From assembly GCA_024679065.1 (NCBI GenBank), contig JAGIQG010000040.1, positions 558,001 through 622,000 on the forward strand: a stretch of 64,000 nucleotides of DNA, in the 5' to 3' direction. Source of the stretch: Sphyrna mokarran (Eukaryota). A program made the position numbers and the translations under genes. How positions within the stretch are numbered: the stretch's first letter is position 1; the number at the start of each line of letters is the position of its first letter. Positions 27,867 through 56,316 of this stretch are shown here, piece by piece. Below the pieces are notes generated by a model that had not been told where the DNA came from, did no database searches, and saw only the letters and a program-made list of their open reading frames with translations.

Positions 27867-27950
27867 CAGCACTGACTCCTGCTCCAAACAAAGTGGCTGT
27901 GAAGCAGCCGGTTTCTGGAGTGTCTGTCAGTGTGTGTCTGAATACACAGG

Positions 27951-27999
27951 ATGATGGGGACTGCTCCTTATCTCTGTGTCCTTCTGTTCTGTCTGACAG
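27951..27999 (+). CDS. IgW: IgW heavy chain leader exon (MMGTAPYLCVLLFCLT-G)
   Basis: ATG, hydrophobic signal peptide, phase-1 donor CAG/GTGAGA, and a 121-nt intron to the V exon. Confidence 0.93.
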
Positions 28000-28120
28000 G
28001 TGAGAGGTGCTGGGGTTTTATCCCCACACTGTCTGATTAATCAGGGATTCTTTGATCATCTGTTTATCTAACGGGAGGTTTACTAAAATTAACTCTCTTC
28101 TTTTTCTCTTTTATTAACAG

Positions 28121-28419
28121 GTGTCCGGTCCAATGTCGTGCTGACCCAGCCCGGGTCTGTTGTGAAAAAGCCGGGGGAGACAGTCAAACTCTCCTGTGCG
28201 GTCAGTGGGTTTGATATCAGCAGCTATTGGATACACTGGATCAAACAGGTCCCTGGGAAAGGGCTGGAGTGGTTAGTTAATTACAAGATTGGTGGTACAA
28301 GTAGTTATGCGCCTGGAATTAAAGGTCGATTTGTCCCTTCAAGTGGGTCCAGTACACTCGCCTACCTTGAAATTAGTCAACTAAAAACAGACGACACTGC
28401 CATGTATTACTGTGCAAGA
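28121..28419 (+). CDS. IgW: IgW VH gene segment (germline)
   Basis: Acceptor TTATTAACAG. Encodes GVRS-NVVLTQPGSVVKKPGETVKLSCAVSGFDISSYWIHWIKQVPGKGLEW...DTAMYYCAR with canonical Cys/Trp/Cys. The N(I/V)VLTQP.SVVKKPGET start is typical of shark IgW V. Confidence 0.97.
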
Positions 28420-28458
28420 CACAGAGAGAGGAAGCAGGGCTGGATTGGGACAAAAACT
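28420..28458 (+). other. 23-bp-spacer RSS 3' of VH
   Basis: CACAGAG (28420-26), 23 nt, ACAAAAACT (28450-58). Confidence 0.93.
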
Positions 28459-28665: not shown

Positions 28666-28966
28666 CATTGAGACATCACAGCTTAAACCAGTGTCAGTGT
28701 AAATCAGAGAAGAGGATTGCTCACTTGTCGCAGTGTGGATTCAGTGTGAAGGGACTGGATTCAGTGTCAAAATTCCCAAACTCCCATGGAGGGGTTGAAC
28801 ATTGACACATTCCCCGGATTATTAAACCCGGTGATCCAGGGACAGAACCATTGAGACATCACAGCTCAAACCAGTGTCAGTGTAAATCAGAGAAGAGGAT
28901 TGCTCACTTGTCGCAGTGTGGATTCAGTGTGAAGGGACTGGATTCAGTGACAGTGAGAGGAGTGGA

Positions 28967-29049
28967 GGTTAATGTATGGCTGTGTATCACAGTGTCTATA
29001 TATGGGGTGGCACAGTGAGAGAGATGGGGAAATCCTCCATTCAAAAACC
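28967..29049 (+). other. IgW: DH1 segment (coding 28995-29010, TCTATATATGGGGTGG) with 5' 12-RSS and 3' 23-RSS
   Basis: GGTTAATGT-12-CACAGTG | D | CACAGTG-23-TCAAAAACC. All three frames are open (SIYGV, LYMGW, YIWG). Confidence 0.93.
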
Positions 29050-29357
29050 TGCCACAGGAAAGTTATTTAAACTGGGGCTTTCAGGCGATATTACCGACCT
29101 TTATCTCATAGCCCGTGTGTGTGTGAACAATTTTCTTTGGAGATATTATTGAAAAGGGGAAAGAACAGTGAGTGACAGCGAGGGGATGCAGAGCAATGAA
29201 AACTCCTTGTGGATCATCTTATCTTTCTGTAAAGTCCTGAAAGACCCTGAGTTTGATACCCGATGTGTGGGGGACACATGGATACAGACTGAGGAGTTAA
29301 TAAAGCTTCTGGCTGCCTGTCTGGAACATTTTATTTTGGGCTGAATCTTATACCTGT

Positions 29358-29420
29358 GGTTTATGACCTGGGGTGAAGTACTGTGATACGCTCACAGTGA
29401 TAGAGAGCTTGACACAAACT
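29358..29420 (+). other. IgW: DH2 segment (coding 29386-29392, ATACGCT) with 12-RSS on both sides
   Basis: GGTTTATGA-12-TACTGTG | D | CACAGTG-12-ACACAAACT. Confidence 0.92.
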
Positions 29421-29758
29421 TCCTCCTGTAGAAATGACCGCGTGTATCAGAGTCTGTGTCCATGGATTCCACATTCCTGCTTCCCAGAGTGAAATATCTC
29501 AGCACTGACTCAGATTATCGGAGGAAAATGTGGATTTCTGGGAAAATAAAAGACAAAAAGGAGGCGATTCTGTTTCTTGGTAAAATGCAGGAGCTGGTGT
29601 TCGCAGACAGTAAAACTGCAAAAATAATTCATTTATTCATACATTTGGAACAGGATTAGGATGGAATTTCAGAGTCAAATGCAGCAAACTACTGCTCCGG
29701 GTTAAAACATGGTTTAAGTTTAATTACCCTGAGATTATTACATATTGTGGACAAGTTC

Positions 29759-29797
29759 AGTTATTGTATTGGGTGAATGAGGAGACAGAGCACAGTG
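29759..29797 (-). other. 23-bp-spacer RSS 5' of JH
   Basis: On the + strand: AGTTATTGT (29759-67), 23 nt, CACAGTG (29791-97). Confidence 0.9.
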
Positions 29798-29845
29798 ACT
29801 ATTTTGACTACTGGGGGAGTGGAACCTTCGTGGAAGTGACTTCAG
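29798..29845 (+). CDS. IgW: IgW JH segment (YFDYWGSGTFVEVTS)
   Basis: WGxG motif and phase-1 donor TCAG/GTAAGA. Confidence 0.96.
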
Positions 29846-30739
29846 GTAAGACAAATTTCTCAATTCCTTCTTTACTTATTTTCTTTAATTTGTGTTATTG
29901 GTGAATTTGATCGTTCAGCTGTAATGTGTGATTTATCTGAAATCAGTGAGGTATTTGGAATAATTAAATGTTTCTCTCTGAGAGAGCTGGATTTCTGTAG
30001 AGACAAGGACATACCCAGTAATTGGAGCTGAAATCTGATAACTGGATTTACTCTCAAGGGTTAAGGTTTAACTCCATAGAATGGAATAACGATTCCCGGA
30101 TCTGTTTAGTGTGTTCCGTTTGACTCAGATTATAATTTTCAGGACATTCTGTTGGAGCAGGTTTGGTGATTTTGGATTTTAGATATTTGCAGTTGGGTTC
30201 GAATTTTGTTCTAATCTGAATTCAAATATTTTGTACAATTGTCTCATGATTTAATTGTTGATGTCAGAGTGGTTTTAAATGTGAGTTATTGCAGTTCAAA
30301 CATTGCTGGAACAGTTTTTAGGTGTATAAAGATTAAGTCCTATGTTCCACTTGATATTTTAGTGATTGTGGAGAGAAAATGGTTTACACAGAGTGAGAAA
30401 CAGGGATTTGTGTTTATAAAAAAACCTCATTCCAACAAGCTGAGCATGAAACAGTGAGCTGCCCAGACAGACAGGAATCAGACTGCATGTGGAATAGGAT
30501 TGTCTTATTGAGACAGGATGTGATTTGTGTTTTGACCATAATTGTTAAACTATCATGATTTACAAATATCCAATCGAGAGTTTAAATCATCTTTTGCTCC
30601 TGAAAGTGAACCTACATTGAGAACTAGAGGATTTGTATGTGGCAGAAACTGTTCTTGAGCACACACAGTAATGGAGCTGTTAATTGTTAATTCATTGAAT
30701 CTGTTTTTTATCATCAATTTTCTAATATTTACAATTATT

Positions 30740-36376: not shown

Positions 36377-36691
36377 TGACCCAGGCTGCACCATCGGTCT
36401 ACATCCCCAATCCTTCCTGTGACATGAACTCAAACCAAGATGAGATTAGCCTCGTCTGCCTGGTGAAGGGCTTTCAACCCAAGGCCATCACTCAGACATG
36501 GTCCAGGAACAATCAGGTCATTACGACTGGAATCAAGAAACTTCCGCCAGTCCGGGGAAAAGACATGAAATACACGATGAGCAGTGTGCTCAAAGTCTCT
36601 GCGTCAGATTGGAATACCGATAGTGTCTACCACTGCAAGGCAGGCCACAACTCCAACGCAATGGTGGAACGGCAATACAAAAGACCCAAAA
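36377..36691 (+). CDS. IgW: IgW constant exon C1
   Basis: Acceptor TATTTCAG. Encodes [16 protein letters not shown]...[18 protein letters not shown]...[14 protein letters not shown]...YHCKAGH, a C1-set domain with an N-terminal Cys suited to L-chain bonding. Phase-1 donor AAAA/GTTAGT. Confidence 0.95.
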
Positions 36692-37199
36692 GTTAGTACA
36701 AGATATTACTTTCCAACTAGAACTATATTATTAGACCATAAGACATAGGAGTAGAATTAGGCCACTTGGCCCATCGAGTCTGCTCCATCATTCAATCATG
36801 GCTGATATTTTTCTCATCCCCATTTTTCTTCCTTTTCCCCTGATTCCCTTATTAATCAAGAACCTATCTATCTCTGTCTTAAAGACACTCAATGACTTGC
36901 CCTCCACAGCCTTCTAGCTGAAGAAATTCCTCCTCATCTCTGTTTTAAAGGATTGCCCCTTTTACCTGAGGTTGTGCCCCTCTGGTTCTACTTTTTCCTA
37001 CTCGTGGAAACATCCTTTCCATGTCCACTCTATCGAGGACCTCACAGTATCCTCTAACTTTCAATAAGATCCTGCCCCCTCGCCGCCATCCTTCTAAACT
37101 CCAATGAGTACAGACCCAGAGTCCGTGAGACAGCAGTGCTAATCCACTGTGGTGCCGTGCTTCTTAAGAGAGGGGTGAGAAGAAATCTTTTCTCACAGA

Positions 37200-38640
37200 G
37201 AACAAAGACTAAAGAACAAAGAAAATTATAGCACAGGAACAGGTTCTTCAGCTCTCCAAACCTGCATTAACCATGCTGCCTGACTGAATTAAAACTCCCT
37301 ATCCTTCTGGGGACCATATCCCTTCATTCTTACTGTTTTCATGGATTTGCCCAAACGCCCCTTAAACTCACTATCATATCTGCTTCACTACCTCTTCCCC
37401 AATGAGTTCCAGGCACCCACCACCCTTTGTATAAAGAATTTGCCCATACATCTCCTCTAAACCTTGCCCCTCACACCTTAAACTTGTACCCTCTAGTAAC
37501 TGACTTTCCATCCTGGGGAAAAGCTTCTGACTATTCACTTTGTCTATACCCTTCTTCAATCTCCGTCATTCCAGTGAGAACAAACCAGGTTTCTCCAACT
37601 TCTCCTCATAGCTAATGCCCTCTATACAAGGCAACATCCTGGGAAATCTTTTCTGTACCTCTCCAAAGCCTCCACATCCTTCTGGTAGTGTGGTGACCAG
37701 AATTGAACACCATATTCCAAGTGTGGCCCAAATAAGGTTCTATAAAGCTGCAACATGACTTGCCAATTTTTAAACTCAGTGCCCTGGCCAATGAAGGCAA
37801 GCATGCCGTATGCCTTCTTGACCACCTTCTCCATCTGCGTTGTCACTTTTGTTGACCTGTATACCTATGCACTAGATTCGTCTGCCTATCAATACAAGAG
37901 GGTTGTGAATCCTTGAAACGAGACAGCGATGGAGACTGGGTCAGTCAATATTATTGAGGCAGAGAGTCAGATTCTGGCTAACAAGGGAGTTGTAGGTTAT
38001 CAGGGGGAAGTAGAGTGCAGAGTTGTGGCTAAACTTGGCCCCAAGTGGAGAATTGTAAATTCTATTTAAAATGGCTAAAATCTCAGCAACAACTTCATGA
38101 ACCATACTTTGGTCTGGCCACCCGACTATAGAAAGGATATTATTAAACCAGAAGAGTGCGGAAAAGATTTACTAGGAAGCTACCGGGACTTGATGGATTG
38201 AGTTATAAGGAGAGGCTGGGATAGACTGGGACTTTTTTCTCTGGAGCGTAGGAGGCTGAGGGGTGATCTTATAGAGGTCTATAAAATAATGAAGGGCACA
38301 GATTAGTTAGATAGTCAATATCTTTTCCCAAAGGTAGGGGAGTCTAAAACTAAAGGGTTTAAGGTGAGAGGGGAGAGATACAAAAGAGTCCAGGGGGCAA
38401 TTCTTTTACACAGAGGGTGGTGAGTGTCTGGAACAAGCTGCCAGAGGTAGTAGTAAAGGTGGGTACAATCTTGTCTTTTAAAAAGCATTTAGACAGTTAC
38501 ATGGGTACAATGGGTATAGAGGGATATGGGCCAAATGCAGACAATTGGGACTAGCTTAGGGGTTAAAAAAAAGGGTAGCATGGGCAAATTGGGTTGAAGG
38601 GCCTGTTTCCATGCAGTAAACCTCTATGCCTCTATGACAA
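37200..38640. mobile_element. CR1 LINE 3' fragments in the C1-C2 intron (37200-37870 minus; 38100-38640 plus)
   Basis: KKAYGMLAFIGQGTEFKNWQVMLQLYRTL..PHLEY.VQFWSPHY on the minus strand; YKERLGRLGLFSLERRRLRGDL-like on the plus strand. Confidence 0.8.
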
Positions 38641-38914
38641 TCTCAGACTGATTCTCAGCACTGAGATTGTCAGATACCAGCAGGAGAAAGCTGACCTTAT
38701 ACAGCAAGCATTCAGGACCCAAAACACTGAAGGATTCTCGCTGTTTGTCAAAATCTAGAACTAAAAGATTAAGCGAATATTTCAGGAGAACCCAGTCAAA
38801 TGGACGAATGACAGCTTGGCATGGTGACGGTTACTCTGGATATTAAAGGATAGGATACATCTTTCCTGTAGCAAAACTATTGTGTAATCTGAAACGTGCT
38901 GAAATGTGTTACAG

Positions 38915-39214
38915 GTCCAAACGTCACCCCCCTTACCCCATCCAAGCAGATTGTCAACAATCAATCTACTGTTGTCCTGGGCTGTGCGATATCTGGATTT
39001 GCTCCCGACGGCATCCAGGTTTCCTGGAAGAAAGGACAATTGGAACAAACAGGTATTGTTCTCCCTTCCAAACCGGGACCTGATGATACATTCGAAACAG
39101 TCTCTTACCTGATAGTCCCTGTGGCGGATTGGAAGAAAGGAGATGGCTATGTTTGTCAAGTGACCCACACACCTTCGAACTTCATTGAGAGGATCAGCTT
39201 GAGATACCAAGAGG
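38915..39214 (+). CDS. IgW: IgW constant exon C2
   Basis: Acceptor TGTTACAG. Encodes [10 protein letters not shown]...[21 protein letters not shown]...[22 protein letters not shown]...RYQE. Donor GAGG/GTAAGT. Confidence 0.96.
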
Positions 39215-42200
39215 GTAAGTGATGTCTGAGAGAGGAAAGGAATATCCCATCAGTAATTCAGACTTGTGTTCACTTCAAAGGCAAAGACTCTGCCTCAGTT
39301 CAAAATCACTGTCCCCAATAACAACCCTGCGGTGAAGGGGGTAAAACGTTCAGTGTTTGGTATTTTGACATTTAACCTACATTTAAGGGGAGTAATTTGA
39401 ATGGAATGCAGGAAGCAGAGGGAAACTGCTGGAATTGGGTCACTGTCTGTTTCCTGTCTTTATCCAATGGGATTCTCTGTGACCCGAAATGAAGATGGGG
39501 CTGGGTGTCAAATGGTCCACCTGATACGTCCCATCTGATACCCAACACATCGAATCCTATCCACAGTTCAAATCAGCTCCCAGTCTTTCCCTTTTCTACT
39601 GCCTCCCAAATGCTGCTTTATCCAGAATTTTTCCAGCTTTGTGTCTGAAGGAATTGCCAGGATTGGCCTCACCATTTCCTGAGCCTCCTCCAGAAATCAC
39701 TCAACTGACTGCTCATCAATTCATTCCCCACATTTTCCTTTTCGATAGAACTCCCCCGCCCCCCCCATCACTTTTATCAGACGTGTACAGAGTAGAAGAG
39801 CAAGGAGGTCATGTTGGAGCCGTACAGAGTGTTGGTGAGGCCACAGCTGGAGTACTGAGTGCAGTTCTGGCCACCTCACTATAGGAAGGATGTGAATGCA
39901 CTGGAGGGGGTGCAGAGAAGGTTCACCATGATGCTGCTGGGAATTGGAGTATTTGAGCCATAAGGAGAGTCTGGATAAGCTTGGATCACTTTCTGAGGGG
40001 GGCCGTGATTGAGGTGTATCAGATTATGAGGGGTTTGGATAGGGTGAGTAGGGAGCAGATGTTCCTCTGGTTGAGGAGTTAATCATTACGGCATTCTCCC
40101 TGTAACCCTTCAACCCATCGCCAATTAAAAATCAGTCTAACTCCTCCTTAAATTGACTCACTGTCCCAGTATCCACTGCACTTTGGAGTAGCGAATTCCA
40201 CAGATTCACAACCCTTTGGGAGAAGTTGTTTCTCCTCAACTCTGTTTTAAATTTGTTACCCCTTCTCCTTAGACTCTGACCTCTTCGTCCCAGAATGTCC
40301 CACAAGAGGAAGCGTCCTCTCCACGTCTTCTTTATCCATACCTTTTATTATCTTGTACACCTCAATTTGATCTTCCCTCATTCTTCTAAATTCCAGAGAG
40401 TAGAGTTCTAAATAAACTGTTCAATCTCTCTTCATATGACAAACCCCTTCATCTCTCAGTCAGGAGGGAGCAGAGTTTTAGAGTAAGTGGGTAGGAGATT
40501 CAGAGGGGATTTGTGAAAAGAAAATCGCACAGGAGGTGGTGGGAATCTGGAATTCACTGCCTGGGAAGGTAGTGGAGACTGGAAATCTTACAACCTTTCA
40601 AAAATATTTGGATGGGAACTTGAAACATCATGGGATTTTCCGGCTACACTCGCTCCAAAACCAGAGAAACCACCCCCCACCCCCACACCCCCCACCTCTG
40701 GGTCAGTAGACCTTTGTGTGGTCCACCCCCACCCCGGGTCAATAGATATTCACATGGTCCACCCCCTCCTCCCCCTCTGCATGCTATGATTCCTGTGGGA
40801 GCGGGAAGGGAGAATCCCCCTCCATAACATTCAAGGATATGGGACAAATGCTGGAAAACGGAATTAGAGTGTGTTTACTGGGGGGTATTGTTGATACAGA
40901 CGCAATGGGCTGAAAGGCCTTTTCTGCACTGTATGATTCTCTGACTGCACCTATCCCCTGCCTCCGGCCCCCACACCCAAATTCAGGATAATTTCCTCTG
41001 ACCGTTCTGGACAATATCAACATGATCCAGTCCATTTTGGATTCTAAAAAGGCAAGACTGAGCTGAGTTCCAGGGCCGTGTTGTTCTCCCAGTTTCTCAG
41101 CACATGGGAGGGGGAGTGAAAATGTGTAATGCTTAATCTGCAACTCTTCCAATTCCAGGTGAAAATCCTCCAATTCCAGGTGGAAACGTAACTAATAAAG
41201 TACTTTCCATCAGGTGTAGACACAGCTTCAGTGCAAAGAAAATGTCAACTAGTTTAGAATATAGATCATACAATCCCTACAGTGCAGAAATAGGACCTTC
41301 AGCCCATCGAGTCTGCACCGACCACAATCCCATCCAGGCCCTATCCCCATATCCCTACACAATTACCCGCTAATCCCTCTAACCTACACATCCAGGAAAC
41401 TAAGGGCCAATTAACCTAACCTGCACATCTTTGGACTGTGGGAGGAAACCGGAGCACTGGAGGAAATGCACGCAGACACGAGGAGAATGTGCAAACTCCA
41501 CACAGACAGTTTAGTTTGATTTGATTTATTATTGTCACATATCTTGAGATACAGTTAAAAGTATTGTTCCTTGCACACTACACAGACAAAGCACACCATT
41601 CATAGAGAAGGAAATGAGAGAGTGCAGAATGTAGTGTCACAGTCACAGCAAGGGTGTAGAGAAAAATCAACTTAATGCGAGGTAGGGTCCATTCAAAAGT
41701 CTGGAGGCAGCAGGGAAGAAGCTGTTCTTGAGTCTGTTAGGATGTGACCTCAGGCGTTTTTTCCCGACGGAAGAAGGTGGAAGAGAAAATGTCGAGGGTG
41801 TGTGGGGAGGTCCTTAATTATGCCGGCTGCTTTGCAGAGGCAGCGGGAAGTGTAGACAGAGTCAATGGATGGGAGGCTGGTTTATATGATGGATTGAGCT
41901 AGATTCACAATCCCTAAAATCCCTTGCGGTCTTTGGCGGAGCAGGAGCCCGTACCAAGCTGTGATTGCAAGCAGAAAGAATGCTTTCTATGGTGCATCTG
42001 TAAAAATTGGTTAGAGTTGTAGCTGACATGCCAATATGGCAATCAGATAATCTGCTAAATATTGACCACCTTCCCCTTTTTCAAAACCCTGACAATAGAA
42101 TCTGTTTCTTCAGCCTGAGAAGGGACCTTGGTTTCCAATCTCATCTGGTTCACTGATGTCCCTTAGGGAAGGAAATCTGCCATCCTTACTTGGTCTGGCC

Positions 42201-43306
42201 TACATGTGACTCCAGAGCCACAGCAATGTGGTTGACTTTCAACTGCCCAAGGACAACTAGGGGTGGGTAATAAATGCTGGCCAGCCAGCGATGCCCATGT
42301 TCCAGAAATGAATTGAAAGATGGATATAAAACAGAAAATGGGAACAATTCAAGTGTTATTTTCCCAGGCCAGTAACTCTGAAGGAAACCATGGAAAGTAC
42401 ATGTTATGGAGAAATAATCCCAACCTGCAGGAAGAGGGAACTTGTGTTACTTCCTCTGATTCCTGGGGGTTGTTCTCCCAATGCAAACCAACCATCTTCT
42501 TTCACAAGGAATTACCACCAATGGCAATGTGCATTGATATAGCGCCGTCAATGCAGCAACCCGTTCCAAAGGGTCTGACAGGATCAAAACCAAAGGGGAG
42601 CTGACACTGAGCCAGGAGGAGAAGATATTGTGATATACCGAAAGCTTGGCTGAATGAGAGGGAGAGGCTTTAAGGAGAGTCTCATACGAGGGGAGAGAGG
42701 TGACAAGTCTCTGAGGTTTGGGCAGTAAGTTGCAGAGATTAGGGCCCAGGTGGCTGAAGGCACAGCCAATGTGGGGGAAAGGAAGTGAAGTATGCACCAA
42801 ACACTAGAGTTATAGAGTTTCTGGATGGCTGTAGGAATGGAGAAGATTACAGAGATCAGGAGAGGTGAGGCCAATGGAACATGAGGATAAGGATTCAATT
42901 GTGAGGTGATCCAGGTTCCTCATACAAAAAGCTCTTCATTCCAGGGATCATTCTTGTGAATCTCCACTGGACCCTTTCCAAGGCCAGCACATCCTTCCTT
43001 AGATATGGGACCCAAAACTCTCACAATACTCCGAATGGGGTCTGGCCAGATCCTTATACACCCTCAACACTACATCCCTGCCCTTGTATTCTCGACATGA
43101 AGGCTAACATTGCATTTGATTTCCTAACTGCCGACTGAATCTGCACATTAATCTCAAGGGAATCTTGAACAAGGACTCCCAAGTCCCTTTGTGTTTGGAA
43201 TCAGAAGCTCCATTTCTCCACAGATGCTATTAGACCTGTTGAGTTTCTCCAGCATTTCCTGTTTTTGTTTCGATTTCTCTGAACTTTTCCCCTTTCCTAT
43301 TCCCAG

Positions 43307-43609
43307 AAATGACTGTGTTGATCCGAAATCCTTCCATGAAAGAGGTTTGGATGAACAAGACGGCTACCCTGGAGTGCTCAGTGGTCTGTTCTGACCCGAG
43401 CCCAATCCAGATCCTCTGGAAAGTGAGTGACAAGAGTAGAAGTGACGGAGTTTTGACTCATCAGCCCACAAGGGAAGGGAGCCTGCACATTATCGTCAGC
43501 CAACTTCGAACCAGTGCAGAGGAGTGGGAGAGCGGGATGGAGTTTGAGTGTTCCGTCCACGGTGATGCCTCGTCTGCACCGGTGTCGAAACGGATAAGCA
43601 GAGCAAAAG
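43307..43609 (+). CDS. IgW: IgW constant exon C3
   Basis: Acceptor TTCCCAG. Encodes EMTVLIRNPSMKEVWMNKTATLECSV...ILW...SQLRTSAEEWESGMEFECSVH...SRAK. Donor AAAG/GTGAGC. Confidence 0.96.
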
Positions 43610-43699
43610 GTGAGCAAACAATCAGAAATTAATCTCCTGACTTTGGTAAGCTTGAGGGGGAAAAGTTTAACACTTCCTTTGTTTATCCATTTCTTCCAG

Positions 43700-44017
43700 T
43701 GAAGCCAAAAAGTCCCACAGTTAGACTGCTGCCCCCAACAGAAGAAGAGATGAAGAGTAAGAACACAGCCACACTCGAGTGTTTGATCACTGAATTTTAC
43801 CCGGATCTTGTGGATGTCACCTGGGAGAAAGATGGTGTTCTGATCTCCTCCAAGACTCGTGCTGGGCTCACAGCTCTGGAGCAGGCAGGGACATTCAGTG
43901 TCAGGCACTACCTGACTGTGAGTCCAGAGGAGTGGAGGAGAAGCTCAACCTTCACCTGCACTGTGTCTCACCCACCCTCCCACTTCAACTGCAGTGAGAC
44001 AGTGAAGAACACCCAAG
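43700..44017 (+). CDS. IgW: IgW constant exon C4
   Basis: Follows C3 after a 90-nt intron. Encodes VKPKSPTVRLLPPTEEE...ATLECLITEFYPDLVDVTW...LTVSPEEWRRSSTFTCTVSH...KNTQ. Donor CAAG/GTATGA. Confidence 0.96.
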
Positions 44018-44796
44018 GTATGACCCGGGGGCCCCAACTCCAAAATTAGCACTGTTTATCCCTAAGGCTGTAAAATCTGTGATGGTCAGGAATTTTAACA
44101 TGGACAATGTTCGCGTGTTTATGCAGTGGGTGTTTGAGTGGGTTCAGGAGTCAATCATTACAGCACTCCCTTCAACCCATTACCAGTTAAAAACCAGTCT
44201 ACCCCCTTCTTAAATTGATTCATTGTTCTGGCATCCACTGTACTTTGGGGTAGCGAATTCCACAGATTCTCAATCCTTTGGGAGAAGTCATTTCTACTCA
44301 ACTCTGTTTTAAAATTGCTACCCTTCTCCTAAGACTCTGGCCTCATCCCAGAATGCATCCTCTCCACGTCTGCTTTATCCATACCTTTTATCATCTTGTA
44401 CATCTCAATTTGATCCTCCCTCATTCTTCTAAATTCCAGAGAGTAGAGGCCTAAATAAACTGTTCAATCTCTCTTCGTACGACAAACCCCTCATTTCTCA
44501 ATCAGAAGGGACCAGAGTTTTAGAGTAAGGGGGTAGGAGATTCAGAGGGGATTTGAGAAAAGAAAATCACACAGGAAGTGGTGGGAATCTGGAATTCACT
44601 GCTTGGGAAGGTAGTGGAGGCTGGAAATCTTACCACCTTTAAAAAATATTTGGATGAGCACTTCAAATGTCACGAATGGGATTTTCCAACCACACTTGCC
44701 TCAAAACCAGAGAACACCCCCCTGAGTCAATAGACATGGTCCACCCTCTCTTCCCCCCACCCCTGCTCGCTATGATTCCCGTGGCAGGCAGGAGGG

Positions 44797-47008
44797 GATA
44801 AGGATAGATCTGGTCCTCAGGTTGAAGTTCTGAACTGGAAAAAGGCCAAATTTGATGAAATGAGAAGGGATCTAGGAAGTGTGGATTGGCACAGGCTGTT
44901 CTCTGGTAAGGATGTAAATGGAAAGTGGGAGGCCTTCAAGAGAGAAATTTTGAGAGTGCAGAGTTTAAATGTTCCTGTCAAGATTAAAGGCAAAGTAAAT
45001 AGGAATAAGGAACCCTTGGTTCTCGAGGGAGATTGTAACACTGATTAAGAGGAAGAGAGAGTTGTATGAAATGTATAGGCAGCAAGGGACAAATCAGACG
45101 CTCAAGGAGTATAAAAAGTGCAAGAAGCTACTTAAAAGAGAAATCAGGAGGGCTAAAAAAAAAGCATGAGGTTGCTTTGGCAAACAGAGTGAAGGAAAAT
45201 CCAAAGAGCTTCTATAGGTATGTTAGGAGGAAAAGGATAGTGAGGGATATAATTGGTCCTCTTGAAGGCCAGAGTGGTAGATTGTGTATGGAACCAAGAG
45301 ATGGGGGAGATACTAAATGGGTTTTTTGCATCCGTATTTATTCAGGAAATGGACATGGAGGCTATGGAAATAGGGCAAACAGGTAGGGAGGTCATGAAAC
45401 CTTTACAGATCACAGAAGAGGAGGTGCTGGCTGTCTTGAGGCAAATCAGAGTGGATAAATCCCCAGGACCGGACATAGTATTCCCACGGACCTTGAGGGA
45501 GGCTAGTGTTGAACTTGCAGAGGCCCTGGCAGACATATTTAAAATGTCAGTGTTCACAGGGGAGGTGCTGGATGATTGGAGGATGGCTAATGTTGTTCTG
45601 TTGTTTAAAAAAAGTTCCAAAAAAAAGTGGGAAATTATAGGCCAGTAAGTTTGACTTAAGTGGTGGGCAAGTTATACGAAGGTGTGATAAAGGATAGGAT
45701 CTACAAATATTTGGATAGACAGAGACTTATTAGGACAGTCAACATGGCTTTGTGCATGGTAGGTCATGTTTGACCAATTTATTAGAGTTTTTCGAGGTGG
45801 TTACCAGGAAAGTGGATGAAGAGAAGGCAGTGGATGTCTACCTGGATTTCAGCAAGGCCTTTGATAAGGTCCCTCATGAGAGGTTAATTAGGAAGGTTCA
45901 GTTGCTAGGTATACATGGGGAGCTAATGAATTGGATTAGACACTGGCTCAATGGAAGAAGCCAGAGAGTGGTTGTGGAGGATTGCTTCTCAGGGTGGAGG
46001 CCTGTAACAAGTGGTGTGCTGCAGGGATTGGTGTTGGGTCCATTGTTTGTCATTGAAATCAATGATCTGAATGATGATGTGGTAAGTTGGATCAGCAAAT
46101 TTGCTGATGTTACAAAGGTTGGAGATGTAGTGGACAGTGAGGAAAGTTTTCAAAACTTGCAGAGGGATTTGGACCAACTAGAAAAATGGGCTGAAAAATG
46201 GCAAATGGAATTTAACACAGGCAAGTGTGAGGTATTGCACTTTGGAAGGACAAACCAAAGTAGAATGTACATGGTAAATGGTAGGACTCTGAAGAGTGCA
46301 GTTGAACAGAGAGATCTGGGAATACAGGCACAGCATTCCCTAAAAGAGAAGTCCAGGTGGATAGGGATGTAAAGAGTGCTTTTGGTTCATTGGCCTTTAT
46401 AAATCAGAGTATTGAGTATAAAAGTTGGAGAGTTACGGTAAGGTTGTATAAAGCATTGGTGAGGCCGAATTTAGAGTATTGTGTACAGTTTTGGTCACCT
46501 AGTTACAGGAAGGGTGTAAATAAGGTTGAAAGAGTGCAGAGAAGGTTCACAAGAATGTTGCCGGGACTTGAGAAGCTGAGTTACAAAGGGACGCTGAATA
46601 GGTTAGGATTTAATTCCCTGGAGCATAGAAGAATGACGGGAGATTTGATAGAGGTGTATATGATTTTTGATGGGTATAGATAGAGTGAATGCAAGCAGGC
46701 TTTTTCCACTGAGGCTAGGGGAGAAAAAAAACCTGGGAGCATGGGTTAAGGGTGAAAGGAGAAAAGTTTAAAGGAATATTAGGGGGGGAATTCTTCACAC
46801 AGAGAATGGTGGAAGTGTGGAATGAGCTGTTGGATAAAGTGGTAAATGTGGGGTCACTTTTAAGAATAATTTGAATGGGTTCATGGATAAAAGGGGTGTG
46901 GAGGGATATGATCCAGGTGCAGGTGCAGTGGGATTGGGCAAAAGATGGTTCGGTGCAGACAAGAAGGGTCAAAGGGCCTGTTTCTGAGCTGTAATTTTCT
47001 ATGGTTCT
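44797..47008 (+). mobile_element. 5'-truncated CR1-clade LINE (~2.2 kb; degenerate ORF2 with RT domain)
   Basis: Frameshifted segments KSPGPD..FPR.LRE, HGRSCLTNLLEFFE, YLDFSKAFDKVPH, SGVLQGLVLGPL, KFADVTK (catalytic motif degenerate) and LYKALVRPNLEYCVQFWSP. 3' tail TTTTCTATGGTTCT. The empty site is visible in the paralogous intron at ~40805. Confidence 0.92.
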
Positions 47009-47659
47009 AAGGGAGAATTCCCCTCCATAACATTCAAAGATATGGGACAAGTGCTGGAAAATGGGATTAGCGTGTGTTTACTGGTGGTTATTGTTGGTGC
47101 AGACTCGATGGGCCAAAAGGCCTTTTCTGTGCTGTATGACTCTCTGACCACACCCCCTGCCTCCTCCAAACTCAGGTCAATTTCCTCTGACCATTCTGGA
47201 CAAGGTAAGTGGGCTTTTCAACGTTAACATGATCTGGTCCCTTTCGGATCCTGAAAAAGGCAGGACTGAGCTGAGTTCAGGGGCTGTGTGGTTCTCCCAC
47301 TTTCCCGGCACAACGGGAGGGGGAGTGAAAACGTGTAAGGCTTAATCTGTAACTCTTCCAATTCCAGATGGCCCTTGTCCTCCTTGCACTTGTGCTGGGT
47401 GTATGCCGAAGTTTGTCCACAAGAATAACCTCGATGTGATCCTGGAGAATGGTGACAAGCTCCAATTTAACTGTCGCCCTCAAACTTGTTCAATAAAGTG
47501 ATTGACTGTGGATGGAATTGGCTGTTGAATATTATTAAGAACCATCCAGGAGGTTCAGATCCAGCCTGTGGTGTCTGTCAGGATGAAAGTGTTCAACAAT
47601 GCAACAAGCAACTGCCATAGTTTGGGTTCTCCCCCACCCAACCCACTCCTGAACTGTGA

Positions 47660-50320
47660 GAAGGATGTAGAATCCTTCAGCATGATCTGGACAGGTTGGG
47701 TGAGAGGGCTAATCAGTGGCAGATGCAGTGTAATTTGGATAAGTGTGAGGTTATTCACTTTGGAAGCAAAAACAAGAAGGCAGATTATTACCTGAACGGC
47801 TGTAAATTGGGAGAGGGGAATGTGCAGCGGGAACTGGGTGCACCAGTCACTGAAGGTGAGCATGCAGATGTAGTAAGCGGTAAAGAAGGCAAATGGTATG
47901 TTGGCCTTCATTGCGAGATGCTTCAAGTACAGGAACAGGGATGTGCTATTGCAATTATACAGGGCCTTGGTGAAGCCACACCGAGAGTATTGTGCGCAGT
48001 TTTGGTCTCCTTTTCTGAGGAAAGACATACTTGCTCTTGATGGAGTGCAGCAAAGGGTTTCCCAGGTTGATTCCGGGGATGGCGGGACTGACGTACGAGG
48101 AGAGATTGACTAAGTTAGGATTGTTTTCGCTGGAGTTCAGATGAATGAGGGTGGGAGGGGATCTCATGAAGACATAAAATTCAAACAGGACTAGACAGGA
48201 TAGATGCAAGGAGGATGTTCCCGATGGTGGGAACACAGTCTGAGAATTTGGGATAGACCACTTAGGATGGAGGTGAGGAGACATTTCTTCACCCAGAGAG
48301 TGATGAGCCTCTGGAATTCATTATCACATGAAGCAGTTGATGCCAAAACATTGAATGTATTCAAGAGGCAGCTGAATATAGCACTTGGGGTGAACGGGAT
48401 CAAAAGTTCTGGGAGAAAGCAGAATTGAGTTGGACAATTCAGCCATGATGGCGATGAATGGCGGAGCAGGCTTGAAGGGCTGAATGGCCTCGTCCTGCTC
48501 CTATCTTGTAAGTTTCTAATGTAAATGGTCATTTTCTTGTGAAATGCTCCAGGTCAGATTGAATAGGAACCTGACCCCACTGCCTGACCATTGTCTCTCA
48601 AAGTCTGTCGAGAATTAGAAGCATGTTTGTCACTCAGATAGTGAGGTCAGGGGCTGGTGGATTGGGCTTTGTTGATCCAGCAGAATGGTGTGATTGGCTC
48701 TTCCAATGGTCTTAGCTCTGAGGTAAATCAGTGATTCGGGACACAAGGAATTACCTGGTGCCCTGCTCAATCTGCACAATGTTTGATTAAATTCTGGGTT
48801 GCAGAGATGGAAACAGTTCCCTTCACTCCTGCAATCTTGGATACTAGTATCAGTCAATGACAGGAACTCAATATTCACAGGAATCCAAGTTGGGGAAGAC
48901 CATAAGACCAAAAGACAAAGCAGCAGAATTATGCCACTCGGCCCATTGAGTCTGCTCCCCCATTCAATCATGGCTGATATTTTTCTTATCCCCATTCTCC
49001 TGCCTTTCCCCATAACCCCTGATCACCTTATTGACCAAGAACTAGCTGTGTCTGTCTTAAAGACACTCAATGATCTGGCCCTCCACAGCCTTCTGCGGCA
49101 AAGAGTTCCATACATTCCCCACTCTCTGGCTGAAGAAATTCCTCCTCATCTCTGTTTTAAAGGATTGTCCTTTTAGCCTGAGGTTATCCCTCTGGTTCTA
49201 GTTTTTCCTACTAGTGGAAACATCCTCTCCACGTCTACTCTATTCAAGCCTCGCAGTATCCTGTAAGTTTCACTAAGATGCCCCTCTCATTCTTCTAAAC
49301 TCCGAGTACAGATCCAGAGTCCTCAACTGTTCCTCATATGACAAGGAATCATTCTTCTGAATCTCCTCTGGGCCTTTTCCAAGGTCACCACATCCGTCCT
49401 TAGATACGTGGACCCAAACTGCTCACAATACTCCAAATGGGGTCAGACCAGAACCTTATACAGCCTCAGAGATCCATCCCTGCTCTTATATTTTAGCCCT
49501 TTCAACTGTTTTTTCCACTTTTCCTCACAGTGGGAAAGTGGAATTAAATGCCCAGTGTCTAATATAATTATTTTACAAGGATAAGGGGACTTCTCACAAA
49601 CCCTGTTAGGTTCCCTGACAAATTCAGAAAATGGACTTCGACTGAGTGATGAACAGAATCAGCGATCCCAAAGTGGAAGGAAATTGGTGAACATTTTGTT
49701 TCAAAGACGAGAGAGAGAGAATGGAACATCTCAACCTAATAAAAGACCCAGTCCTGTCAGACAGACACTGTGTGCTGACCATGAGCTGAAACTGCAGCCG
49801 CAAGGGGTGATGGCTGGTGTACAACAGACTGTAGGAGTGGAGGCTTTGGAGAGGATATGGAAGAGTTTACCAGGATGTTGCCTGCTCTGGAAAGGTTGAA
49901 GAAACTTGGTTTGTTCTCACTGGAACGACGGAGGTTGAGGGGTGGTGACCTGATAGAGGTTTACAAGATTGAGTGGCACGGACAGAGTGGATAGTCAGAT
50001 GCTCTTTCCTTAAGGTAGAAAAGACAAGTACGACGGTACATCAGTTTAAGGTGCGTAGAGAAAAGTTTAGAGGAGCTTGCGAGACAAGTTTTTTTACACA
50101 GAGGATGGTGAATGTCTGGAATGTGCTGACCGGGGGGGTAATGGGACAGGCACCAGGGAGGTAATGGGCAACTAGACGAATACATGAATAGAATGGGAAT
50201 GGAAGGATACAAACTCTGTACCTGCACACGGTTTTAGTTTAGACAGGCATCATGATCAGCACAGGCTTGGAGGGCCGAAGGGCCCGTTCAATGTGCTGTT
50301 CTGCTCTTTGTTCTTTGTAC
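47660..50320. mobile_element. Cluster of further CR1 3' fragments (47660-48520 +, 48900-49500 -, 49830-50320 +)
   Basis: [37 protein letters not shown] and FFTQRV motifs. Confidence 0.75.
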
Positions 50321-53018
50321 AGCACACGCAGTAAACTGCTGGGTATCTGAAATGTAAATGTCCTCGAGGGGAGACGATAGCCTCATGGTATTATTGCTCA
50401 ACTATTAACCAAAACTCAGCTCATGTTCTGGGGACCAGGGTTCAAATCCTGCCACTCCAGATGGTGAATTTCAAATCAATAAAAAGTATTTGGAATTAAG
50501 ATCTACTAATGACCACGAAACCAATGTCGACTGGCGGAAAAACCTATCTGGTTCACTGATGTTCTTTAGGGAAGGAAATCTGCCTTGGTTACCTGGTCTG
50601 GCCTGACCTACATGTGACTCCAGAGCCACAGCAATGTGGTTGACTTTCAACTGTCCTCTGAACAAGGACAACTAGGGGTGGGTAATAAATGCTGGCCAGC
50701 CAGCGATGCCCATGTCCCACAAATGAATTGAAAGATGGATATAAAACAGAAAATGGGAACAATTCAAGTGTTATCTTCCCAGGCCAGTAACTCTGAAGGA
50801 AACTGGGGAAAGGACATTTTATGCAGAAATAATCCCAACCTGCAGGAAGAGGGAACTTGTGTTACTTCCTCTGATTCCTGGGGGTTGTTCTCCCAATGCA
50901 AACCAACCATCTTCTTTCACAAGGAATTACTGTCAATGGCAATGTGCATTGATATAGCGCCGTCAATGCAGCAACCCATTTCAAAGGGTCTGACAGGATC
51001 AAAACCAAAGGGGAGCTGACACTGAGCCAAAAGGAGAAGATATTGTGATATACCGAAAGCTTGGCCGAATGAGAGAGAGGCTTTAAAAAGAATCTCAAAT
51101 GAGGGGAGAGAGATGACAAGTCAGTGAGGTTTGGGCAGTAAGTTGCAGAGATTAGGGCCCCGATGGTTGAAGGCATGTCCACTGATGCTGGGGGGAAAGG
51201 AAGCGAAGGATGTACCAGAGACTAGAGTTGGATGGCTGTAGGAATGGAGAAGGTTACAGAGATCAGGAGAGGTGCAGCCAACGGAACATGAAGATAAGAA
51301 CCTGGATCAGGCTTAGAATCCTTAAATATGTGGTCCTTAATTTTGCCGGCTGCTTTACTGAGGCAGTGGGAAGTATAGACAGAGTCAATGGATGAGAGGC
51401 TGGATTGAGTGATGGATTGGGCTAGACTCAACCCTTTTGTAGTTCCTTGCGGTCTTGGGCAGCACAAAAGCCATACCAAGCTGTGATTAAACCAGAAAGA
51501 ATGCTTTTTATGGTGCATCTGTAAAAGTTGGCGAGAGTTGGAGCTGACATGCCAATATGGTGATCAGATAATCTGGTAAATATTGACTACTTCCCCTTTT
51601 TTAAAACCCTGACAATAGGATCTATTTCTTCAGCCTGAGAAGGGACCTTGGTTTCAGGTCTCTTTCTGAAAGATGGCACTGCAAACAGAGTTCCCTTAGT
51701 ACTGCTTGGCCATTCTTGCTCATGAAGTCAAGTATCTGTCATGGGACTTGAACATGCAGTAATATAGAGGAGGCAGCCCGGCTAACGAGGCAAGGCTGAC
51801 ACGGCCAATTAATGATCCAGAGAACTGAGTTCAAATCCAAGACAGCCTGAGAATTTGAATTTAGTTTTAGAAAGTAAAAATTGGAAATTAAACGCTGACA
51901 TCAATAAACCAGAAACTGTTCACTTGTCATTAAAAACCCAACTAGTTTGTTGATGTTCCTTTCAGGAATGATTATTGGTTAGAATCCCTACAGCACAGAA
52001 GGAAGCACTTGCAATATTGTGTTCAATTCTGGTCGTCACACTACCAGAAGGATGTGGATGCTTTGGAGAGGGTTCAGAAAAGATTTACCAGGACGTTGCC
52101 TAGTATGGAGGGCACTAATTATGAGGAGAGGATGGAGAAACATGGTTTGTTCTCACTGGAATGACGGAGGTTGAAAATAGTGACCTGATAGAAATCAAAA
52201 AGATTATGAGAGGCATAGACAGAGTGGATAGTCAGAAGCTTTTTCCTAGGTTGGAAGAGTCAACTTCTAGGGGGCACAGGTTTAAGGTGCGAGGGACAAG
52301 ATTTAAAGGAGATGTACGAGGCAGGTTTTTTACACAGAGGGTGGTGGGTGCCTGGAACTCGCTGCCAGGGGGAGGGAGTGGAAGCGGATACGATAGTGAG
52401 TTTTAAGGGACATCTTGACAAATCCAAAAATAGGATGAAAATAGAGAGATATAGTCTCCGGAAGTGTTGGGAATTTTAGTTAAGTCGGGGCAGCATGGTC
52501 AGTGCAGGCTTGAAGAGCTGAAGGGCCTGTTCCTGTGCCGCAATTTTCTTTGTTTTTTTGTTCTTCGTTCTGTGAAGCCATTCAACCCACCGAGTCTACA
52601 CCGATCACAATCCCACCTCGGTCCTATCCCTGTAATCCCACACATTTCCCTTGCTGATCCTCCTAACACTAAGGTCAATTTAACACTGCCAATCCACCTA
52701 GCCTGCACATCTTTGGACCGTGGGAGAAAACTGGAGCACCCGGAGGAAACCCTCACAGGTATAGGGAGAACGTGCGGACACCCACACAGACAGTGACCCG
52801 AGACCGGATTTGTGAGGCAGCAGTATTAACCACTGTGCCACTGTGCCGACTGTCCTGACCCTGTCTGCCTCAGATGTGGCTCCAGGCACAAACCCTGTGA
52901 AAGATCCCTGTGAGCCACTGTTGTATCTGTGACAACAGGCCTGAATCACCAGCCTTGCAAAGCCATGTCCTCGTCCCACCGGGTAATCATGAAATAATCA
53001 TTGTCATTTCTCACCCAG

Positions 53019-53339
53019 ATCACTGTTTGGACACTGGGATCTCAGTCACCTTAAGGAAGCCTCCTTTCGAAGAGATCTGGAGGAACAGGACAGCCACTCT
53101 TCTTTGTGAGATACTTCACGGTGATTTGGAGGGAGCCAGGGTGACCTGGCTGGTGGATGGAATTGAGAGAAAAGATGGAGTGAAGACTCAGAATCCCAAG
53201 AGGAATGGAAACAGAGACATGATCTTCAGCAGACTGACAGTCCCCGCCGCAGAGTGGGAGAGCGGGGTCGAGTATTTGTGTTGGGTGGAGGACAAAAGTT
53301 TGCCCACGCCGGAGAAGAGGTCAATCAGGAAAGCCCAAG
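53019..53339 (+). CDS. IgW: IgW constant exon C5
   Basis: Acceptor TCTCACCCAG. Encodes DHCLDTGISVTLRKPPFEEIWRNRTATLLCEI...VTWLVDG...SRLTVPAAEWESGVEYLCWVEDKSLPTP...KAQ. Donor CAAG/GTACGT. Confidence 0.96.
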
Positions 53340-53495
53340 GTACGTGTGGATGGAACTAGTCAAAGAGTCATAGAGATTTACAGCATGGAAACCCGCTTTG
53401 TTACCGTGCCACCCCGTCTTCCTCACCCGGTTTGCGTCACTGGGTAAATACAAGAGAGAAAGACTCAGTCTAATCTATATTGTCTCTGTTTGCAG

Positions 53496-53878
53496 TTGAG
53501 GTTAAGACTCAGCCTCAAATCTACCTCCTTCCCCCTTCATCGGATGAGATGGAGAGGGAGCAGACTGCGACCTTGGTGTGCCTGGTGACCGGATTCTCCC
53601 CCGCAGACATCTACCTGGCCTGGATGGCCAACGACACCCTCCTGAAATCGGGATTCGTGAACCAGCCGGTGAGCGAGGACGGTCACAGCGGCTGGAACTC
53701 CAGCAGTCAGCTGACAGTCTCTGCGGACGAGTGGGACAGCGGCACCACTTACTCCTGTGTGGTGGGACATGAGTCAGTCACATCAAACCTGTTCAGGAGC
53801 ATTAATAAATCTCATGGCAAACCCACCCTGGTCAATGTGTCACTTGTCCTGACCGAGAGCTTTAAATCCTGCTCATAA
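53496..53878 (+). CDS. IgW: IgW constant exon C6 with contiguous secretory tail (53816-53878, GKPTLVNVSLVLTESFKSCS*)
   Basis: Acceptor TGTTTGCAG. Encodes QPQIYLLPPSSDEM...ATLVCLVTGFSPADIYLAW...SSQLTVSADEWDSGTTYSCVVGHES. The IgM-type tailpiece has an NVS sequon and a penultimate Cys. Confidence 0.97.
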
Positions 53879-54162
53879 CATCTGGCCATTCAATCAGCCA
53901 TTTATATAATCCTTATAAATCGATGGTTAATACAGCCAGAGGATTGGTGTGATCACAAGAACAGCTCTCTTCTGGTGACAGGTCACAGAAAACGGCTTTG
54001 CTCGATCGTTGAGATAAAGAAACTATTCGGTGATTGAATCAGACTCCAAACATCCTTTTCTCCAAATGTCTGAAAGTCTTGAGTTCCCTTTGCAATATTT
54101 GATTGAGTGTGAGATCGCACAAAGGGTTAATTGTACACGGCACAATGTCCTGATCCAGTTTT

Positions 54163-54168
54163 AATAAA
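54163..54168 (+). terminator. Polyadenylation signal for the secreted form
   Basis: AATAAA ~285 nt after the stop, followed by a GT-rich downstream element (TTGTTGGTGTGTTTT ~54203-54217). Confidence 0.75.
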
Positions 54169-54229
54169 CATGATGTCAAAAGGTTTCAGTTTCAAGTCTT
54201 CATTGTTGGTGTGTTTTGAGAAACAGTAA

Positions 54230-54860
54230 ATGAGTCAAACTTAAAGTTTACTTATTAATGTCACAAGTAAGCTTACATTAATGCTGCAATGAAGTTACTG
54301 TGAAAATCCCGTGGTCACCACACTCCGTGCCTGTTTGGGTACTCTGAGGGAGAATTTAGCATGGCCAATGCACCTAACCAGCATATTTTGAGGATTATGG
54401 GAGGAAACCCACACAGACACGGGGAGAATATGCAGACAGTGACCCAAGCTGGGAACTGAACCTGGGTCCCCTGCGCTGTGAGATAGCAGTCCTAACCACT
54501 GTGCCACCATGTCACACTAACTTCGGACATGAGATGTGGTGAGCGTAATGTGCTTGTGACCAGCAGAGTTGCAATGATTAGTCCACAGCAGGGCGGCACA
54601 GTGGTTAGTACTGCTGCCCCACAGTGCCAGGGACCTGGGTTCAATCCCCAGCTTGGGTCACGTGTCTGTGTGGAGTCTGCACATTCTCACCACGTCTGCG
54701 TGAGTTTTGTCTGAGTGTTCCAGTTTCCTCCCACAGTCCAAAAGGCGCGCTGGCTAGGTGTACCTGAAAAGGCGCAGGAGTGTGGTAACTAGGGGATTTT
54801 CACAGTAACTTCATTGCAGTGTTAATATAAGCCTACTTGTGACAATAATACATAAACTTT
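54230..54860. mobile_element. Two head-to-head HE1-like SINEs (54230-54510 minus; 54590-54860 plus)
   Basis: tRNA-like heads (GGCACAGTGGTTAG...GGTTCAATCCC) and a shared tail (TTTCACAGTAACTTCATTGCAGTGTTAAT) in opposite orientations. Confidence 0.75.
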
Positions 54861-56173
54861 AAAACAGCTCCATCACCATTGTAAATATTAATGTCAGGTT
54901 GGCTGTGGTCTTTCTTGGTTTATCCGATTCAATTTGCTGTCAGTCAGTTCCCACAGTGAGAACTGTGAGAATGAGCGGATCATCTGGTTTTGGTTGAAAG
55001 GTGGATGTTGTCTGACTCAGAACTCTGCAGGGAATTTCCTGCTCTTCTTCCAGTAGTGTTGTGGGTCATTTACACATTAACATCAGCCTGAGGGCCATTG
55101 CTTAACGTCTCATTGGAAAGATGGCACCTCCGACACTGCAGCACTTTATCAGCCCTGTATCGGAGTGTGCCCCTGAATGATGCACTCTAGTCTCTGGAGT
55201 GAAACTCAAACTCTCAATTTTCTGAACCAGAGCTGGGAATGTTATCTACAAACCCCACCACAGTGATCCGTGAACTGCAGGCTTTCAGAATCCATTTGGT
55301 CCCTCACTCTCTCATATCACCACTCACAGCAACTTGTGTCACTGAGCAGATAAGGTCAGTGACACAAGGTCAGTCACATCTGGTGACTGCACAAGTTCAT
55401 CTAATGCTGCCTCAGAAAATATTGGGTCGACTGAAATATTAAATAGAGGCAGCAAATCAAAAAGAAATATTTGAAGTGAAAGGAATTTCATCCTGGTTGT
55501 GGGGATAATCTCAGAGTGCTCCCTGCAGGTCAATAGGTGTTACTGGAGACAAAAAGTGTGATAGAGAGAGAGAGGGAAAGTGTGAGAGTGACAGTGAAAC
55601 ATAAAAGGAAGACAGTGCGAGAGGGAAGAGGGAGACAGAATCAGAGAGGGGTTGAGAAGTAGAGAGTTTGTAATGATTCAATGCTCCCAGTGCTTTTCCT
55701 TTATTCATTTGTGAGACGTGGGCATTGCTGGCTGGGCCACCATTTATTTCCCATCCTAGTTACCTGAGAGCAGTTGAGAGTCAACCACATTGCTGTGGCT
55801 CTGGAGCCACATGTAGGCCAGACCAGATAAGGACGGCAGATTTCCTTCCCCAAAGGACATTAGTGAACCCAGTGGGTTTTTTTTTAAAACAACAATCGAC
55901 AATGGTTTCATGATCTTTGATCGACTCCTAATTCCAGATTTTTATTATTGAATTCAAATTCTACCAGCTGCCTTGGTGGGATTCGAACCCGTGTCTCCAG
56001 ATTATTAGCTGAGTTTCTGGTTTAATAGTCTAGCGATAATGCCACTAGGCCATCACTTCCCTCCCCCCTGCTGCTCCACTGTTGTCTTCTCCTTCGCTGT
56101 GTTATCTTCAAACTGTTGGGATGTTGGGGACCTTGATGTGAATTTTAACAGCTCTGATTTCTCTTTGTTTCAG

Positions 56174-56316
56174 CGAAACCTCCAGAGGTGACAGGAGAGG
56201 AAGGAAAGGAAGAAATGGGAGATTTGGAGGGAGATGACAACGCGCTGACAGTTTCTGCCTTTATCATTCTGTTTATTCTCAGTTTCCTCTACAGCACCTT
56301 TGTTACTCTCGTCAAG
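56174..56316 (+). CDS. IgW: IgW transmembrane exon TM1
   Basis: Acceptor TCTTTGTTTCAG, phase 1. Acidic spacer AKPPEVTGEEGKEEMGDLEGDD, then LTVSAFIILFILSFLYSTFVTLVK carrying the antigen-receptor CART residues (F..LF.LS..YST.VT). Donor AAG/GTGACC. Confidence 0.95.

Follow-up and report, generated by a model that had tools for sequence, protein, structure and literature searches.

A weak, probably occasionally used alternative recombination signal upstream of the J segment in an IgW heavy-chain cluster of the shark Sphyrna mokarran

Does the J segment of a shark IgW heavy-chain cluster carry a second recombination signal sequence (RSS), and could such a signal give rise to very long CDR3s? The question is raised by a 64,000-nt stretch of the Sphyrna mokarran genome (assembly GCA_024679065.1, contig JAGIQG010000040.1, positions 558,001 to 622,000), referred to here as the window and numbered from its first nucleotide. 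The original prediction held that a second 23-RSS, 48 nt upstream of JH, might form a built-in "long J". The relevant features of the window are as follows.

27951..28458, plus strand: leader exon (27951-27999), IgW VH exon (28121-28419) and V 23-RSS (28420-28458), from V identity to named IgW
28967..29049, plus strand: D1 5' 12-RSS (28967-28994), D1 (28995-29010) and D1 3' 23-RSS (29011-29049)
29358..29392, plus strand: D2 5' 12-RSS (29358-29385, minus orientation) and D2 (29386-29392)
29393..29420, plus strand: D2 3' 12-RSS CACAGTG-12-ACACAAACT, the sole deletional partner of either J-side signal
29711..29749, minus strand: cryptic or alternative 23-RSS CACAATA-23-ACTTAAACC, from sequence reading and scoring on a genome-derived matrix (10.5 bits)
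29750..29758, plus strand: 9 nt separating the cryptic heptamer from the nonamer of the main J RSS, read from the sequence as the coding end that an upstream join would leave
29759..29797, minus strand: main J 23-RSS CACTGTG-23-ACAATAACT (20.2 bits), whose read-through in the J frame gives LLYWVNEETEHS
29798..29845, plus strand: IgW JH segment DYFDYWGSGTFVEVTS with a GT donor at 29846; other sharks' IgW proteins have a similar J
36377..56316, plus strand: IgW constant region with six C exons, secretory tail and TM exon, from tblastn with Squalus and Triakis IgW (53-76% identity), splice sites and ORFs
36377-36691, 38915-39214, 43307-43609, 43700-44017, 53019-53339 and 53496-53878, plus strand: the C exons, the last with the secretory tail
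56174-56316, plus strand: TM exon

The window contains a complete IgW cluster. The V region is 73% identical to Squalus IgW and 69% to Triakis IgW, and the constant domains match named IgW at 60% (C1) and 75-76% (C3-C6). Signals occur in the order 23/12/23/12/12/23 across V-D-D-J, followed by the six C exons, secretory tail and TM exon. The shark IgW cluster as reviewed in PMC5192425 likewise has one V, Ds, one J, six C exons, a secretory tail and a TM exon; the layout is no different, and the passages of that review dealing with IgW mention no extra signal.

The predicted signal and its spacing were found exactly as described. On the plus strand, GGTTTAAGT (29711-29719) is followed by 23 nt and then by TATTGTG (29743-29749), which on the minus strand (29749-29711) reads as an RSS with two mismatches to consensus in the heptamer and two in the nonamer. 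The IgW cluster is intact, and its J coding end follows 48 nt downstream. The site combines a CAC heptamer, a 23-nt spacer, a nonamer-like motif and J orientation upstream of the J RSS, and a 12-RSS partner in deletional orientation is present at the 3' side of D2 (29393-29420). The J frame was also predicted to be open over the intervening 48 nt (29750-29797), and it reads QVQLLYWVNEETEHSD-YFDYWGSG, with stops in the other two frames; after QVQLLYWVNEETEHSD the frame continues as YFDYWGSGTFVEVTS.

Signal strength was scored with a heptamer-plus-nonamer matrix built from 96 genuine 22/23-RSSs (35 distinct) of the other, non-IgW clusters of this genome. In these bits, which are not RIC scores, the cryptic site reaches 10.5; the true J RSS scores 20.2, and the six RSSs of the cluster range over 15.4-23.0. 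The minimum among the 35 distinct genuine heptamer-nonamer pairs was 15.9 bits (12.2 by leave-one-out, the next being 17.3), and the cryptic site falls below every genuine V, D or J signal in that set. In published SARP-seq data, which come from a 12-RSS library and mammalian RAG whereas the cryptic site is a shark 23-RSS, joints amounted to 0.055% for the cryptic CACAATATG and 0.515% for CACTGTGCT of J, making the cryptic heptamer ~9-fold less active; the genuine D2 5' heptamer of the cluster, CACAGTACT, gave 0.127% (PMC9723617). The heptamer CACAATA is itself found at the genuine D2 3' RSS of cluster L020. Among the 1000 best predicted nonamers of PMC12711392, the main J nonamer ACAATAACT occupies row 15, and the cryptic nonamer ACTTAAACC is absent from the supplement text. 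That absence does not exclude function, because the genuine D2 5' nonamer TCATAAACC is likewise absent from the table. RSS scores can also mislead, since the only signal used at mouse TRBJ1-7 is an upstream one with a failing RIC score, as reported in PMC6857471. By these comparisons the cryptic signal is weak, though not clearly dead.

How often such a site arises by chance was assessed in several ways. Under the rule implicit in the original prediction (CAC start, no more than two mismatches in heptamer and two in nonamer, spacer of 23), the 64-kb window has five matches, comprising three genuine RSSs, the cryptic site and one at 50125. The D2-J interval (338 nt) was dinucleotide-shuffled 5000 times; 0.5% of the shuffled sequences (spacer 23) or 1.3% (spacer 22-24) held a J-oriented site that equalled or exceeded the score of the cryptic site, and 0.12-0.28% held one together with an open J frame. 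Real DNA is richer: both strands of window positions 30,000-64,000 yielded 7 sites (spacer 23) or 16 (spacer 22-24), equal to ~3% and ~8% per interval. The cryptic site is rarer than chance on the narrow test, and overall 0.3-3% per D2-J interval would be expected to carry one. These figures flatter the site because the threshold was taken from the site itself; as many clusters were examined in addition, its rarity, which is the main result favouring the original prediction, is suggestive only. The open frame alone is unremarkable, with 161 of 290 16-codon windows stop-free in the D2-J interval and 37% in the J-C1 intron. The divisibility of 48 by three was considered as evidence and discarded as meaningless, since junctions are trimmed and receive N additions.

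The content of the added segment was then considered. Of its 48 nt, 39 are the J RSS itself, meaning that the "long-J peptide" is the J RSS read through, and the J frame stays open for 184 nt upstream, well beyond the cryptic signal. In other clusters the read-through gives Q-x-x-L-L-Y, with LLY corresponding to the nonamer. Counted over 32 other clusters (L014 was dropped, its Trp pattern not matching), the J frame is closed by a stop in 31, and in 29 that stop lies 7 nt upstream of J, which we read as a shared ancestral codon; in L030, an IgM-type cluster, the J frame is open for 76 nt. IgW gene models of other sharks read the spacer-heptamer stretch in three frames, namely THSD in Cetorhinus (junction THSDYW), RAQW in two Chiloscyllium (RAQWYYLDYW) and QSTV in Stegostoma (QSTVLGYW). 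These read-throughs, automated-annotation artefacts of the last few codons only, indicate that the frame of J-RSS DNA relative to J is not fixed among sharks. When the 41-aa long-J frame was compared with longer proteins, a weak test, the search gave one candidate and none at E<=10. The ultralong CDR3s of cattle are stabilised by cysteines. In IgNAR, cysteines likewise serve as a stabilising motif in CDR3 (PMC5192425), and the added segment QVQLLYWVNEETEHSD has no cysteine.

Our searches of the assembly identified one other IgW cluster, an inverted copy ~135 kb away (L004). Its cryptic signal is identical, and the two clusters differ at one position over 28768-29795 (~1030 nt). Past the J border identity falls, with a 9-nt shorter J and 4 substitutions, and the proteins are 61% identical in C1 and 100% in C6, a pattern that suggests recent homogenisation. 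Conservation in paralogous IgW clusters had been proposed as a check, and what it returned was an identical signal within a tract of ~1 kb carrying a single difference; the match is uninformative on conservation because that tract is near-identical anyway, and paralog conservation was rejected as evidence for selection. In its own organisation, L004 (G000:C994:719000-724000) has three D segments (two D1-type 12/23 plus D2) compared with two in the window, and the 524-nt difference maps to window position 28766, between direct repeats.

The wider set consisted of 40 stretches taken around the best V hits, 34 of which had a J RSS; L032 and L039-L043 were excluded from J counts. Non-IgW clusters are termed IgM-type from their layout and from a last C exon ~40% identical to IgW C6. 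A J-oriented site with an equal or better score lies within 340 nt of J in 12 of the 33 other clusters (spacers of 22 or 24), and these 12 are not independent because 11 represent one homologous site, ten with a spacer of 24 and L012 with 22:

165-188 nt upstream of J: homologous D2-J RSS-like site in L006, L008, L012-L014, L016, L021, L025-L027 and L033

Among the 13 sites of this sort, the window's is alone in having an exact 23-nt spacer. In 18 of 33 other clusters a GTG sits 7 nt ahead of the J nonamer and could be the ancestor of the cryptic heptamer. Anchored similarity between the IgW flank and those of other clusters is marginal (P 0.043 over 20 nt, 0.054 over 30 and 0.134 over 60), and the IgW flank gave no match to an nhmmer profile built from the J flanks of 32 other clusters. 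Two further features of these flanks were noted. Cluster L038 (V at G000:C994:9418119-9418406) has a tandem signal, CACAGAA-22-ACAAAATCT, 46 nt upstream of a J whose frame is closed; its V contains a TAG, and neither a V nor a D RSS was found there. An AG is located 4 nt upstream of the J nonamer in 32 of 33 non-IgW clusters, mostly after a pyrimidine-rich tract, and resembles a conserved acceptor site for the splicing of germline J-C transcripts.

Signals of a comparable kind are known from mouse T-cell receptor genes. Mika et al. 2019 reported alternative upstream RSSs at TRBJ1-2 (-31), TRBJ1-7 (-40) and TRBJ2-6 (-47); that of TRBJ1-2 accounts for <0.1% of joins, with signal joints cloned, and that of TRBJ2-6 for 3 of 145 joins (PMC6857471). 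As described there, these cases resemble the window in having a second J-oriented signal 30-50 nt upstream, use of which leaves the D-J coding joint with the true J RSS still in it. They differ in being 12-RSSs in TCR beta whose use was shown by reads (for TRBJ1-2 also by signal joints), whereas the window has a 23-RSS recognised from sequence alone; in contrast to mouse, there is no overlap between the two signals in the window, and the J frame remains open all the way through. The immgenT study describes RSS-retaining "freak event" joins in mouse TCR (bioRxiv 10.64898/2026.01.30.702900), in which in-frame joins keep germline flank and RSS and produce extremely long CDR3s, as would be the case here; those joins were seen in expressed TCRs, whereas the IgW case is predicted only. 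Safonova and Pevzner 2020 described V(DD)J tandem fusions through cryptic nonamers, in which cryptic signals beside genuine RSSs also provide a route to long CDR3s; there, however, a second nonamer serves the same heptamer and is conserved mammal-wide, and the IgW signal is a separate heptamer plus nonamer (PMC7605257). Titles and abstracts within our literature search, which left most subscription papers outside its scope, included none on an alternative J RSS in shark IgH. The site is probably a real, weak and occasionally used alternative RSS in shark IgW, and a new candidate of the kind known from mouse TRBJ.

The sequence and orientation of the signal, its open J frame and its low score relative to genuine RSSs were observed directly. 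With somewhat more confidence than doubt, we interpret it as a weak 23-RSS-like signal that is rarely cut by RAG (probably in ~1% of D2-J joins at most) and gives RSS-retaining long CDR3s as a likely unselected by-product. The proposal that D2 could join at either signal survives in part: the 12/23 rule permits it, and with a signal of this strength rare use is plausible, as mouse TRBJ genes illustrate (PMC6857471). RAG bound to the D2 3' 12-RSS would usually take the strong J RSS and would occasionally capture the outer signal instead, deleting the D2-J DNA as far as 29749 and leaving the J RSS in the joint. The coding end from 29750 would then be trimmed and N-added. Approximately one third of outer joins would be in the J frame, reading (Q)VQLLYWVNEETEHSDYFDYW, and those retaining 29750-29797 would contain TGGGTGAATGAGGAGACAGAGCAC. 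An in-frame outer join would add up to 16 residues. Nurse shark IgM CDR3s span 4-17 codons with a mean of 11.6, and a 24-codon case was termed an aberration (PMC2435157); because 16 residues added to that mean give ~27, we would expect a cysteine-free CDR3 of ~27 residues, which must still pair with a light chain. The signal itself may have originated by drift of the J flank, from a GTG near the nonamer and an A/T-rich nonamer-like stretch at the right distance.

The original prediction also envisaged a later rearrangement through the intact inner RSS, and as a form of editing this fails. The 12-RSSs that remain after an outer join (D1 5' and D2 5') are oriented like the inner J RSS, so a second event could only be inversional; once V-D1-D2 are joined, the signal orientations imply that no 12-RSS is left for the inner J RSS.

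Two rival accounts were weighed. We consider it unlikely that the signal is an inert look-alike, never cut and always outcompeted by the strong J RSS 9 nt away, with no long CDR3 resulting. Such a reading fits the lowest score among all RSSs compared, and higher-scoring J-oriented sites do exist in J-C introns with no J behind them. The T at nonamer position 4 breaks the purine-A/T-purine motif of positions 4-6 described in PMC12711392, yet two genuine nonamers of the cluster, TCATAAACC and ACATTAACC, also have T there, mouse signals with worse nonamers are in use (PMC6857471), and the cryptic heptamer+2 is measurably active in SARP-seq (PMC9723617). The other account concerns origin and is compatible with rare use: the site would be a drifting, old tandem copy of the J RSS plus 9 nt. 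We regard this as improbable. No tandem repeat was called at the site and its spacer matches the adjacent J spacer at just 6 of 23 positions, although the 48-nt period matches the combined length of one RSS and 9 nt, and the clusters' J segments differ in length by exactly 9 nt (Trp preceded by 14 or by 5 nt). Compared with the J spacers of other clusters, the upstream spacer matches at 8.1 of 23 positions against 5.7 when shuffled (P 0.08), a weak hint, but a comparable resemblance to the ordinary J flanks of other clusters is seen in the 20 nt preceding the nonamer (P 0.04).

In a third account, the IgW J would have been selected as a dual-RSS "long J" built for normal and long CDR3s at appreciable frequency, to which we give very little credence. 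The exact 23-nt spacer, CACA start, AAA core and open J frame speak for it (joint chance 0.12-0.28% in shuffles), as does a J frame closed in 31 of 32 other clusters, although the IgM-type L030 also has an open frame and the tandem signal of L038 has a closed one. Identity in both IgW clusters of the assembly is expected from one difference in ~1030 nt up to the J border, the frame varies among other sharks' IgW models, and the peptide is a cysteine-free RSS read-through. The CDR3s of named IgW cDNAs are short (Squalus YTWEYGHLDY and Triakis DRMGGA; other species, n=2), and even 24 codons counted as an aberration in nurse shark IgM (PMC2435157). As a selected feature the built-in long J is not supported, with a score below all genuine RSSs, 39 of 48 nt belonging to the J RSS and a frame that remains open 184 nt upstream. 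It is accordingly a long shot that two working 23-RSSs exist of which the outer supplies a maintained minority class of IgW, with a ~27-residue CDR3 from the read-through inner RSS. Equally far-fetched at present is what that would represent, a germline route to long loops within a conventional two-chain shark antibody.

If the outer signal were often used, very long CDR3s would be hard-wired in IgW by a route needing neither extra Ds nor long N regions, in which an RSS doubles as coding sequence, with a bearing on the evolution of long loops and on the little-understood IgW. If use is rare, which we consider the most likely case, the site would extend a RAG slip known from mouse TCR to a shark Ig locus. 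The adjacent signals would provide a clean natural test of competition between two RSSs, and reads retaining the RSS would be mis-called as long N regions. A V-domain protein search with 96 hits brought up 7 gene models from sharks and 2 named IgW proteins known from cDNA; of 23 short hits in another, none was named as a shark protein, and neither yielded an IgW repertoire. In run X1 (RNA by guess, with no positive control), contigs matching 27800-30200 cover part of the V and D region and nothing of 29582-29905, a stretch that includes the normal J and the long J alike. An X1 contig of depth 92 agrees with V over 28193-28275, carrying the base of the paralog at 28234, and then runs into ~117 nt of divergent sequence (CDR2-FR3; window 28193-28420), and is perhaps a third IgW V or an allele absent from the assembly.

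Several other elements were observed in the window. The IgW J-C1 intron contains a V-oriented RSS-like sequence on the plus strand (CACAGAG-24-AAAAAAACC, 30387-30426, 16.9 bits). There are two minisatellite arrays, one at 14043-14609 with 49-nt units that include a 12-RSS-like match, and one at ~24850-27630 with ~52-nt units, immediately upstream of the IgW promoter.

The J-C introns of IgM-type clusters contain two conserved J-oriented sites:

~1.2-1.35 kb downstream of the J heptamer: strong conserved RSS in L007, L017-L019, L022-L027, L031, L034 and L036, e.g. at G000:C994 5,157,774, which is L025 position 3274
~290-300 nt downstream of the J heptamer: RSS-like site with a 23- or 24-nt spacer in L006, L008, L009, L012, L013, L015-L018, L020-L023, L025-L027, L029, L031 and L034-L036

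The former reads CACAGTG, CACAGCG or CACAATG-22-(A/G)CAGAAACA and scores 18.5-23.1 bits, equal to genuine signals; six copies were read, and no J-like coding sequence was found behind them. Joined to a D2 3' 12-RSS, it would delete J and silence the cluster, an arrangement that recalls the kappa intron RSS and deleting element, and it is possibly of greater interest than the cryptic J signal. The second site scores up to 21.6 bits and reads CACAATA-23-ACAACAACC in L006 and L008.

Individual clusters showed further peculiarities. In L005, a divergent IgH cluster, the opposite strand holds at 2218-2291 (G000:C994 ~7,224,720-7,224,790) a tRNA-Asn(GTT) sequence, either a gene or a pseudogene, whose end is ~15 nt from the J RSS nonamer and upstream of it. 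L037 (G000:C969:7386) is without V and D1 signals, as if V and D were germline-joined, and L039 (G000:C994:7404999) resembles a germline-joined VDJ with an open frame.
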